Origin: a virus
Lineage: Duplodnaviria > Heunggongvirae > Uroviricota > Caudoviricetes
Virus record (IMG/VR): IMGVR_UViG_2687453522_000001
DNA length: 64,000 nucleotides
Strand: one strand, 5' to 3'
The notes beneath the pieces were generated by a model. It made no database searches. It saw nothing but the letters and a program-made list of their open reading frames with translations, and was not told the DNA's origin. Shown here one piece after another: positions 8,660-11,044 of the stretch. The position numbers and the translations under genes were made by a program. The stretch's first letter is position 1. Every line of letters begins with the position of its first letter.

Positions 8660-8853
8660 TGAAACCTCGTAGAATCTGGTGTGTTAACCGATTCTACGAG
8701 TAGTCATTTGTTCATTGAGTGGGAATATTGCCGTCCGGGAGTAATATGGTATCATTAAGTTAGAGTAGGTAGTGTAGATGGAATGAGGAGTATCATATGG
8801 TTATCACACAATCAGGTTGCTTTGAGTCAGGTTGTTTTGAGTAAAACAATAAA

Positions 8854-8879
8854 ACGCCCTTTAATGGGCGTATTTTTTT
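8854..8879. terminator. hairpin plus T-run (terminator-like) at the edge of the AT-rich island
   Basis: ACGCCC-TTTAA-TGGGCGT followed by TTTTTTT; lies between divergent gene starts. Confidence 0.4.
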
Positions 8880-8889
8880 AGGATTTAAA

Positions 8890-9783
8890 ATGCATTCTTT
8901 ACAGAAATACATAAAACATAAATATACTCACTTAACTTTTTTTCTCTCATTACTTTTCTTCATGATATTTGAATCTCGAGAAGATATTATCAAGAAAACA
9001 TTATCTTTTTCTCTCGATGAAGTTTTACCATTCTTAATGTTTGCGTTCTTCTCCGCCTTTATCAGCATAACGATAAAGGAAAAGATAGCAAAAAAATACC
9101 CAGAAACAAACGATGGGATTACCATTATAGCTTTAATCTTTGGTGTAACGCTATATAGTGTATTTATATTATATTATTTATATGGTGATGTATACCAATC
9201 CACAATTGCTTTACTTATAAGTTCTGTGCTACTTGGTTCTGGGTGGTGGGTTCAGGCTACTGTGAGTAAAGTAGCCGCAAGAAAATCACACACCTTAAAT
9301 ACACTAATGAATCAAAGAAACAGTGAATTATTTCACAAAAAAGTCTCATCGGTAGCGAATACGTTCGGGCTTAGAAAAACCATAAATGAAATTATTGCCA
9401 AACAAAGACTTATCCCAAATGATAAAGATTTAAAAAATAAAAAGGTCCATGATAAATACATATCAGCAGGTAATGATATGTTCTTCGTTCTTAATTATTA
9501 TGAGTTTATCTGTTCAGGAATAATAAATGGAGACTTTGATGAAGATTCAATGAGAGAATGTCTTGGACAAATTGTTCCAGGTCTCGAAGTTAGAGCATTT
9601 CATTTTATAAGAATTGCAAGAGAAATTTCAGGGAGTAGCTGCTTCTGTAATTTTGTTGCTGTTTCAGATAAATGGTCTACTAATGGAGGCTCTCTTATTC
9701 TCAGACACGAGAAAGGAGAACCTGTGATCAATAACCTGACCCATTGCTTTGAAGAAACAGCCTGTTATAACACAACATCTTAA
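8890..9783 (+). CDS. polytopic membrane protein with C-terminal soluble domain, unknown function
   Basis: 297 aa; about four hydrophobic helices in the first 125 aa, then a Cys-containing soluble domain; strongly AT-rich coding sequence. Confidence 0.6.
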   Translation: MHSLQKYIKHKYTHLTFFLSLLFFMIFESREDIIKKTLSFSLDEVLPFLMFAFFSAFISITIKEKIAKKYPETNDGITIIALIFGVTLYSVFILYYLYGDVYQSTIALLISSVLLGSGWWVQATVSKVAARKSHTLNTLMNQRNSELFHKKVSSVANTFGLRKTINEIIAKQRLIPNDKDLKNKKVHDKYISAGNDMFFVLNYYEFICSGIINGDFDEDSMRECLGQIVPGLEVRAFHFIRIAREISGSSCFCNFVAVSDKWSTNGGSLILRHEKGEPVINNLTHCFEETACYNTTS

Positions 9784-9789
9784 TATTTT

Positions 9790-9816
9790 GTAACCCATAA
9801 TCGCTTTATGGGTTAC
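9790..9816. terminator. bidirectional terminator hairpin between convergent genes
   Basis: GTAACCCATAA-TCGCT-TTATGGGTTAC perfect 11-bp stem with AT-rich flanks. Confidence 0.5.
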
Positions 9817-9834
9817 GTTAAATTTGCAATAAAA

Positions 9835-10311
9835 TTAATCGCCGCGCTTTAAGCATCCATCGTTTTTAGCTTGTTGATATAATTTACTTAGCCCAGAAAG
9901 AGGAAATGTGGCAATTTTTTCATTATCAACATAAGCATCGATCGCATTAGCATTTGAATCTGCTGCATCTTGCCAAAAGGCATACCACCAAGAATCTCCA
10001 ACCATTGACCCAAGATTGCTAAAAGGGTATTGCTCACCATCTAATGTTAATACTATTTTACTCTTGTCAGCATTATACTCTTTTTTATTATTCGACGACC
10101 TTAGCAACAGGCCTAAACTACCGGCACTATCTGGTGATCCATACATGAAACCCATATCACATAAAAAACTTATCTTATCACCATTTTGATTATGGATTGT
10201 ATATTCTCTCCCCCCTCTATCTTCAATTACATTCCATTGTAGAGGATCAATTTTTGCAAATACTCCTGCTGAAATTAACGATACAAATAATAAAAACCAT
10301 CTCATATTCAT
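9835..10311 (-). CDS. secreted/periplasmic protein, unknown function
   Basis: 158 aa; N-terminal signal-peptide-like MNMRWFLLFVSLISAGVFA; AT-rich. Confidence 0.6.
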   Translation of the reverse strand: MNMRWFLLFVSLISAGVFAKIDPLQWNVIEDRGGREYTIHNQNGDKISFLCDMGFMYGSPDSAGSLGLLLRSSNNKKEYNADKSKIVLTLDGEQYPFSNLGSMVGDSWWYAFWQDAADSNANAIDAYVDNEKIATFPLSGLSKLYQQAKNDGCLKRGD

Positions 10312-10333
10312 TTTTTTCGCTTCTTATCTGTAA

Positions 10334-10684
10334 TTATTCTGCAATATCATTTGCCCATTGCACGGCAGCAAAATGAGTGCCCAAGCCACTCAGGAAAGCA
10401 ATTATTCCCAAAACAATACTAGCTGCTGTTGATTCAAACAAAGCACCAATGCTATAGCCAATAGCTCCCCATACTAAGCTAAAGACAATCATCAATGGTA
10501 TTGCCAGAAATTTTATTCTTAAACTAAAAATCAGTCCAAGAAATGAACCGCCAAAGGCCCACCATGATTTAGACATTAAACCTATCAGTATTGACAGAAT
10601 TCCTATTTCAATAAAGAGAATATTAGATTGCTCTTCATTGAATTTCGCATTTGTTACACCTTTACGAACATGTTCAGATGACAT
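10334..10684 (-). CDS. small integral membrane protein, unknown function
   Basis: 116 aa with 3-4 hydrophobic helices; upstream of and co-directional with the secreted protein gene. Confidence 0.6.
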   Translation of the reverse strand: MSSEHVRKGVTNAKFNEEQSNILFIEIGILSILIGLMSKSWWAFGGSFLGLIFSLRIKFLAIPLMIVFSLVWGAIGYSIGALFESTAASIVLGIIAFLSGLGTHFAAVQWANDIAE

Positions 10685-10830
10685 GATTAACTATCTCCAG
10701 CCACAGATAAAACGCCTTAAAATAACATTTTGTAGCACAAAGTTTCACCATGCAATGGTCAAAGTCTTTGATCCATATCAATTAGAGTTATACATTTTAG
10801 TTGCATAGCTAATAATTTATACGGACACAA

Positions 10831-10847
10831 ATTGCTCTAATTATTTT
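10831..10847 (+). promoter_or_regulatory. C1-type operator-like site
   Basis: ATTGCTCTAATTATTTT, close to the 17-bp ATTGCTCTAATAAATTT motif recurring in this window. Confidence 0.45.
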
Positions 10848-11044
10848 GTTTTTTTAGTTTCATATGCTACATTAACTCGCTTGCGTGCTAATGCATTTTC
10901 GGTTTATCCTAAACAAGCATCTTAGTAAAACGGATGCCGGGATTGGAACCCCGGATAATGCAAAAGGCGACACAGACGCCAAAAGCGTCTTTTTTATGTC
11001 ATGCCATCGCACAACCATACGTAGCACATAGCTACGAGATCAAT

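Follow-up and report, generated by a model that had tools for sequence, protein, structure and literature searches.

We analysed a stretch of 64,000 nucleotides (hereafter the window; IMG/VR record IMGVR_UViG_2687453522_000001) whose source is a P1-like (IncY) plasmid prophage, and studied in it an AT-rich slot of ~2.2 kb with three genes, which we name A, B and C. The slot is a recombination-prone, AT-rich accessory site that runs from LPsit (the late promoter of the pmgC-tub-sit tail operon) to the C1 operator of the c4-icd-ant operon. Our comparisons make it very likely that it holds two separable accessory modules of the sim variable region, gene A by itself and the gene pair C-B. Judging by the position of the slot and by the contexts in which relatives of these genes occur, we propose, as a reading with roughly an even chance of being right, that C-B is a sim-like envelope operon, that A is an independent DUF4760 gene, and that both act against incoming phages.

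The slot occupies the position of the P1 sim genes

The flanks define the slot. To its left lie homologues of P1 tub and pmgC (97-100% identical) and to its right, in this order, a C1 operator, an isrK-like RNA, the C4 antisense RNA, icd and the KilAC antirepressor. The counterpart interval of P1, between pmgC/LPsit and Oc4, contains simA-simB-simC, which lies on the minus strand and diverges from Oc4/c4. A reading made earlier from the letters alone (the sequence-only reading) had located the block at the sim position, and the flanking pmgC/LPsit and Oc4/C4 RNA, the same as those of simABC, confirm it. Its description of the block as inserted in the tail module did not hold, as the site is a known variable junction between the late promoter of the tail operon and the ImmI region.

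The left boundary is sharp. Up to 8711-8712 the DNA is 98-100% identical to P7, Ro157c2YLVW and NZ_LR890336, and alignment and blastn place the junction at 8711/8712 in all slot variants. The DNA just before it (8660-8711, minus strand) is the conserved region upstream of pmgC, with LPsit at ~8691-8710 as placed by transfer from the P1 and P7 annotation, and is outside the variable DNA. Thus, of the extent first given for the block, 8660-10860, the block itself is real but its variable part begins at 8712. On the right, the operator-like site that had been pointed out at 10831 is a C1 repressor operator, ATTGCTCTAATTATTTT (10831-10847, plus strand), with two mismatches to the P1 consensus ATTGCTCTAATAAATTT. 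It is placed as the Oc4 annotated in P1 and P7 (the Oc4/Op51 equivalent), stands at the start of the c4-icd-ant operon and serves as the right landmark of the slot.

The composition of the slot is as deviant as had been judged by eye. Sliding G+C was 0.28-0.37 over ~8700-10900 and 0.46-0.53 in both flanks, and the 8700-10860 interval, at 0.337, is the minimum among all 2.16-kb windows of the 64 kb (mean 0.47, standard deviation 0.03). For 8712-10730 the G+C is likewise 33.7%. Congruently, the G+C at third codon positions was 0.25-0.27 for genes A, B and C vs 0.48-0.53 for pmgC, tub and ant. The block had also been called compositionally foreign; its G+C does deviate, but this is nothing special at this site, where the simABC genes of P1 have a G+C of 0.336. 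In a published comparison of P1-like phage-plasmids simABC is one of eight highly variable regions, and its low G+C was remarked upon (PMC9603915). Because P1 simABC is equally AT-rich, and because both the low G+C and the variability are published, we regard a deviant G+C as the rule at the sim position of P1-like genomes and not as the mark of an unusual insertion.

The contents of the slot point to two modules

The three open reading frames are exactly where the sequence-only reading had put them, on the same strands and with the same lengths (297, 158 and 116 amino acids), and their products are, as it had claimed, predicted to go to the envelope, with membrane helices in A and C and a signal peptide in B. 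Its view of them as a single three-gene cassette, on the other hand, has to be revised, since A lies on the opposite strand to C-B and the two can be separated. Gene A is convergent with C-B, a hairpin lies between them, and each occurs without the other, for which reasons we describe two modules and not one cassette.

The whole 2.2-kb block is 99.7-100% identical in 24 Escherichia coli and Klebsiella plasmids; the single one that we inspected closely is of the IncY type and non-mobilisable. Approximately 40 of 5,426 complete E. coli genomes hold at least 80% of the block, nearly always on a plasmid. Of the PLSDB records, 29 have A and 56 have C-B; in 24 both occur, at 99% identity or more. 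In ~27 PLSDB plasmids C-B (~95% identity) occurs without A; among these A-less plasmids, our loci L014 and L026-L032 have an SH3-domain gene after B on the same strand, and L014 also has a secreted long SimA upstream of C. Conversely, ~5 PLSDB plasmids carry A without C and with either a 3' remnant of B (56-60 codons) or a B pseudogene. The remainder of the slot in the plasmids with A and a B remnant consists of a P7-type lipoprotein and a DUF5384 protein, or of a long SimA, a B paralogue and an SH3 gene. One element of this kind (locus L015, NZ_CP069679.1) contains a 93-bp direct repeat (2282-2374 and 3678-3770) of the pmgC-5'/LPsit segment, equivalent to 8619-8711 of the window, and the two copies flank the DUF4760 gene and the 3' B remnant. 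We take this repeat to be the footprint of homologous recombination between slot types.

Gene A in addition has the look of a moron: it is present in those 29 among ~330 PLSDB records of P1-like elements that share the flank, its G+C is deviant (0.326 vs 0.47), and hairpins stand on both of its sides.

Other P1-like elements fill the slot in other ways. P1 has SimA, SimB and SimC, with signal peptides; P7 has the outer-membrane lipoprotein Upf50.5 together with Upf50.0, whose annotation is that of a signal-peptide-bearing membrane protein and whose L015 counterpart is named as DUF5384 family; Ro157c2YLVW and JK004 have a secreted long SimA and a B-family protein. An exported or envelope protein starts the slot, or occurs in it, in every variant that we found (P1, P7, Ro157c2YLVW, JK004 and the C-B-SH3 plasmids). 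The 52-residue SimA of P1 (L004, 2913-3071) is an N-terminal remnant, 93% identical over 41 residues, of a secreted protein of 172-215 amino acids, and this full-length SimA is encoded in the same slot of Ro157c2YLVW, JK004 and several plasmids (e.g. L002, 3302-3949; L016, 5626-6144). The remnant makes the sim operon of P1 itself look recombinant.

For the distribution of the B family we scanned with a narrowed B alignment. The family proved to be almost confined to the sim slot of P1-like elements. The scan of IMG/VR returned 42 loci, and all those with flanks show pmgC downstream, icd upstream, or both; a long SimA followed by a B-type protein was the commonest arrangement. The scan of one genome per species (185,579 species) returned two loci. 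Among the elements examined the B-type periplasmic protein, and not SimC, is the commonest occupant of the slot. Locus L016 (CP057476.1) encodes at 5031-5537 a 168-residue 'hypothetical protein' that is a second, divergent B paralogue with the N-terminal motif W.VGGEQGWRE...F.CD, which indicates that some elements have two B-type genes, or one gene and a pseudogene.

Gene A encodes a DUF4760 protein with predicted membrane helices

Gene A (8890-9783, plus strand) encodes a protein of 297 amino acids for which the open reading frame, Pfam and a structure model together predict about four N-terminal transmembrane helices followed by a helical DUF4760 domain. Residues 120-262 match Pfam PF15956 (DUF4760) with an E-value of 7.7e-14 and 52.5 bits (cut-off 25), covering model positions 13-141 of 141. 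It had been held that none of the three proteins could be placed in a known family; A belongs to this one, and each of A, B and C falls in a PHROG family (phrog_21275 in the case of A). We collected 23 homologues of A, down to 37% identity, nearly all with a precomputed PF15956 label. Their invariant motifs, GWWVQ...R..HT.N..M.QRNS..F and NYYEFI...D (D217), are polar and are placed where the fourth hydrophobic segment ends and in the helices after it.

The AlphaFold model of A is all helical, with a predicted local distance difference test score (pLDDT) of 81, and merges helices 3 and 4 into a single long one; in a Foldseek search of the PDB it had no meaningful neighbour (best E-value 0.5). 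The positive-inside rule would give A four membrane helices and place its DUF4760 domain, like its N- and C-terminus, on the cytoplasmic side.

Genes B and C encode a predicted periplasmic and inner-membrane pair

Gene C (10334-10684, minus strand), as judged from its open reading frame and the alignment of its homologues, encodes a predicted inner-membrane protein of 116 amino acids. An invariant N-terminal motif, VRKG.TNA.FNE, is followed by four predicted hydrophobic helices rich in Gly, Ala and Ser. The protein belongs to phrog_15014 and has 16 homologues at 54-99% identity. Gene B (9835-10311, minus strand) encodes a protein of 158 amino acids that its signal peptide and family alignment predict to be Sec-exported to the periplasm. 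The signal peptide has the n-h-c layout with a predicted cleavage at VFA|K, and the family conserves two cysteines (C51 and C153) and an invariant W109. As C ends 22 nucleotides upstream of B on the same strand, the two genes probably form one operon.

The B family is very small, with 22 representatives among 1.84 billion proteins. One cluster of its homologues bears a precomputed PF27224 label, on which a literature search yielded nothing functional. A profile of the family found no match in the PDB. Neither B, C nor their relatives reached the cut-off of any Pfam family, and we discounted DUF981 (E-value 0.015) and the LydA holin (E-value 0.045). Searches of A, B and C against NCBIfam gave only noise. 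None of the three proteins has a functional name in any public source, and each is encoded on at least 1,000 contigs.

Comparison with known systems

Among the outcomes that the sequence-only reading had named as refuting it were that the proteins were homologues of SimA, SimB and SimC or known lysis proteins, and we found neither by BLAST, hhalign, BFVD and family searches. An all-against-all BLASTP of A, B and C with SimA, SimB and SimC returned nothing better than an E-value of 1.8. The hhalign comparison of the B-family profile with SimC, the processed 264-residue Sim protein, gave a probability of 0.9% and involved the signal peptide only, and SimC was not among the viral fold matches of B in BFVD. 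With no match by any of the three methods, homology of A, B or C to the Sim proteins was rejected. Among the families of holins, endolysins and spanins, the only hit was Phage_holin_3_3 (LydA), at the E-value given above and in 1 of 12 C-family members, and there are no lysis genes next to the slot; a lysis-protein identity was rejected because this match is far below the cut-off and confined to one member, and because no lysis cassette is adjacent.

The slot and simABC of P1 are nonetheless alike in several respects. Both run from pmgC/LPsit to the C1 operator of c4-icd-ant, C-B has the strand and direction of simABC, away from c4, both are low in G+C, and the products have signal peptides or membrane helices (for B, a predicted export). 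They differ in the lack of any sequence or profile similarity, in gene number and in the additional convergent gene A of the present slot. The cassettes of Ro157c2YLVW and JK004 are closer, since B is 36-37% identical to their 158-residue protein at the same position, and in the C-B-SH3 plasmids C-B is ~95% identical to ours. With these alternative cassettes the slot shares the left junction; it departs from them in having C as first gene in place of the long SimA, and the convergent DUF4760 gene in place of the SH3 gene. Compared with the Pfam DUF4760 proteins of temperate phages and satellites, A has the same order of membrane helix and conserved helical domain and the same cargo or moron position, but A and its close relatives have about three extra N-terminal transmembrane helices.

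HK97 gp15 and P22 SieA are prophage-encoded inner-membrane superinfection-exclusion morons. Our proteins resemble them as small moron-encoded membrane proteins, a likeness of description for which we claim no homology.

Relatives of A and C in other elements

Full-length relatives of A (30-46% identity) occur at cargo sites of mobile elements. In an Erwinia P4-like satellite one lies between the genes for primase and integrase, a position that has been described as a minor defence hotspot of P4; among the newly named P4-hotspot systems described in the main-text section of that report no DUF4760 protein appears (PMC13586616). Another is located between the lysis cassette and the integrase of a Pseudomonas putida prophage. 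The relative in E. coli phage phi467 adjoins an integrase, as do those of two further elements, of which one has an AAA_21 and RloB pair as well. Pseudomonas phage Riah has a relative at the end of its genome, on the strand opposite the lysis genes, and yet another stands between the genes of a D12 methylase and of an Mrr-type nuclease. None of these relatives adjoins a relative of B or C. Acinetobacter phage TRS1 (L019, 2731-3459) encodes a shorter DUF4760 protein, 26% identical to A over the domain only; its gene, a moron bounded by terminators, belongs to the tail module, where it follows the tail-assembly chaperone genes and stands just before the tape-measure gene.

Relatives of C are found alone in chromosomes, by an integrase, by an AAA ATPase and after a secreted DUF4431 protein. 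An unrelated myophage contig has a C-family moron (L067, 3001-3348) that follows the sheath and tube genes and stands just before the tape-measure gene. The HK97 gp15 moron has a place comparable to those of the TRS1 DUF4760 gene and this C-family gene.

Terminators, promoters and leaders

A terminator scan counted 8 terminator-like sites in the region against 1.5 ± 1.0 in shuffled sequences, and the hairpins that had been noticed by eye were recovered at two places. The first, a bidirectional terminator-like hairpin followed by a T-run, is at 8854-8871, 19 nucleotides before the ATG of gene A. The second has a 12-bp stem, is located between the convergent genes A and B (9789-9817) and is likely a terminator.

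The first hairpin stands at the end of a spacer (8712-8889) that alignment and blastn show to be common with P1, at ~81% identity and with one indel of 23 bp and another of 15 bp. The 23-bp insertion relative to P1 (8737-8759) creates the extended −10-like sequence TGGTATCAT, and the other one is a 15-bp tandem duplication at 8824-8838 (GGTTGCTTTGAGTCA / GGTTGTTTTGAGTAA). Both insertions are present in all three of the A-bearing elements that we aligned. Upstream of A on the plus strand there are two candidate promoters, TTGCCG-16-TGnTATCAT (8728-8755), whose −10 lies inside the 23-bp insertion that P1 is without, and a weaker TTGAGT-17-TTTAAT (8837-8865) that overlaps the hairpin. Because the extended −10 is upstream of the hairpin, expression of A would need read-through or attenuation unless the TTGAGT-17-TTTAAT promoter is used. 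Folding of the gene A leader gave a z-score of −2.4 with the terminator hairpin included, which is uninformative.

The number of promoter-like sites equalled the expectation from shuffles, with no site above it. The region upstream of the C-B operon (10685-10830, minus strand), in which blastn similarity to other C-B elements stops at 10730, 46 nucleotides upstream of C, gave no convincing sigma-70 promoter even in a lenient scan.

Other features of the window

In the leader and intergenic DNA an Rfam scan detected no riboswitch or attenuator, and its only hits were the two RNAs to the right of the slot, an isrK-like Hfq-binding RNA at 10917-10995 (58.5 bits) and, just downstream of it, the C4 antisense RNA at 11039-11126. 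The ImmI region on this side (10731-11400) is of neither the P1 nor the P7 type, and its 10731-11200 part has no blastn match to either; phage D6 is 87% identical over 10917-11329, which spans the RNA region and the greater part of icd.

Further C1-operator-like sites with 0-2 mismatches to the consensus are located at 12569, 29203, 32725 and 50370 on the plus strand and at 32736 and 44605 on the minus strand, those at 32725 and 32736 being an overlapping inverted pair. Four more islands have a G+C below 0.40 in 500-bp windows (14101-16400, 22301-23000, 54301-55400 and 56701-57400), and they probably correspond to other published variable AT-rich regions of P1-like genomes.

Discussion

P1 sim excludes superinfecting P1 at the envelope. 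Since sim acts there, and since every alternative occupant of the slot includes an exported or membrane-bound protein, the most economical reading of C-B is that it would be a non-homologous functional replacement of sim in the same orientation and position. C in the inner membrane and B, Sec-exported and probably disulfide-bonded, in the periplasm would form an envelope superinfection-exclusion operon that may interfere, after adsorption, with the delivery of DNA by incoming P1-like or other phages. Gene A would be a stand-alone moron, acquired separately, whose product may be a membrane-anchored, single-gene anti-phage protein acting by a block of injection or by membrane-based abortive infection. 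The distribution of A resembles that of anti-phage genes borne by prophages and satellites, and the consistent presence of four-helix DUF4760 proteins at cargo sites makes them reasonable candidates for anti-phage action at the membrane. Our comparisons establish the layout of the slot, the separability of its modules, the family assignments, the absence of homology to Sim and the distribution; we infer the expression state of A, B and C, the topology of their proteins and any exclusion or defence activity.

Several results weigh against this proposal. Not one of A, B and C matched any of 5,027 defence models of PADLOC-DB v2.0.0 at an E-value of 1 or below, they share no homology with proteins of proven exclusion or defence activity, and none of the PDB searches gave an informative match. 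A literature search for DUF4760/PF15956 yielded nothing on its function. The phenotype of P1 sim itself comes mainly from multicopy clones. No convincing promoter was detected for either module, and A, which starts 19 nucleotides past a terminator-like hairpin, may not be expressed in the lysogen. We found no B-like neighbour of the C relatives elsewhere, which leaves B and C unlinked outside P1-like elements, and some relatives of C live in ordinary chromosomal neighbourhoods.

This last observation also bears on the idea that these are lysogenic-conversion genes that have nothing to do with phages and alter the envelope for the benefit of the host, through adhesion, stress tolerance or immunity to bacteriocins or toxins. 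Relatives of C standing alone in chromosomal metabolic neighbourhoods, or downstream of the secreted DUF4431 protein, would suit such a role, and so would the great abundance of these exact proteins on plasmids of clinical E. coli. We still consider it rather unlikely, given that the fold matches are weak and their annotations putative, that B is essentially limited to a slot whose one characterised occupant, sim, acts on superinfecting phage, and that the relatives of A cluster at phage and satellite cargo sites beside defence-type genes.

Quite improbable, in our estimation, is a single defence system in which A, B and C work together with A as sensor or effector. Its appeal is in the contiguity and common low G+C of the genes, in the near-identity of the block across the 24 plasmids and ~40 of the complete E. 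coli genomes, and in the retention of at least the 3' end of B by every A-bearing P1-like element examined. However, A and C-B converge with a hairpin between them, and the association breaks in both directions, with C-B lacking A and followed by the SH3 gene in some plasmids and A lacking C and keeping only a B remnant or pseudogene in others; moreover, elsewhere the relatives of A are never beside those of B or C, and the relatives of C are without B. It is very improbable that the genes serve the lytic cycle of the phage itself, as holin-like proteins or in lysis timing, injection or virion assembly. The slot adjoins the tail operon, some relatives of A lie beside lysis cassettes, and there is the weak LydA match of one C-family member, but that match is far below its cut-off, the relative of A in phage Riah is on the strand opposite the lysis genes, and P1 has no homologue of A, B or C within the pmgC-c4 slot examined. 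The slot is dispensable and interchangeable among near-identical P1-like genomes, and simABC is highly variable (PMC9603915), which also speaks against a lytic role.

A broader form of the proposed anti-phage function has two parts that would have to hold together. In it, the four-helix DUF4760 proteins, A and its 30-56% identical relatives from the Erwinia P4-like satellite, Pseudomonas prophages, phi467 and others, would be a new single-gene membrane family of anti-phage or exclusion proteins, and the B family would be the commonest exclusion determinant of P1-like phage-plasmids, replacing SimC. We offer this combination tentatively, as something that may be so but that we would not count on. 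The locus is not categorically new, being a variant of a published AT-rich variable slot made up from catalogued families (DUF4760 and three PHROGs). What is new here is the modularity of the slot, the B-type protein as its commonest occupant and the consistent cargo-site distribution of the four-helix DUF4760 proteins.

Resistance genes are carried by P1-like phage-plasmids, which are widespread in E. coli of clinical and animal origin, and the rules by which phages and phage-plasmids enter an already-occupied cell are poorly known beyond P1 sim. The slot is a small exchange site for at least six alternative sets of envelope proteins, of which sim alone is characterised. Were the proposal wrong, the locus would be one more set of hypothetical accessory genes at a site already known to vary. 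Should C-B or the DUF4760 gene exclude phages, this would give DUF4760 a function and P1-like elements, P4-like satellites and Pseudomonas prophages a new membrane-level defence gene in common, and it would explain in part the patterns of incompatibility and exclusion among phage-plasmids.

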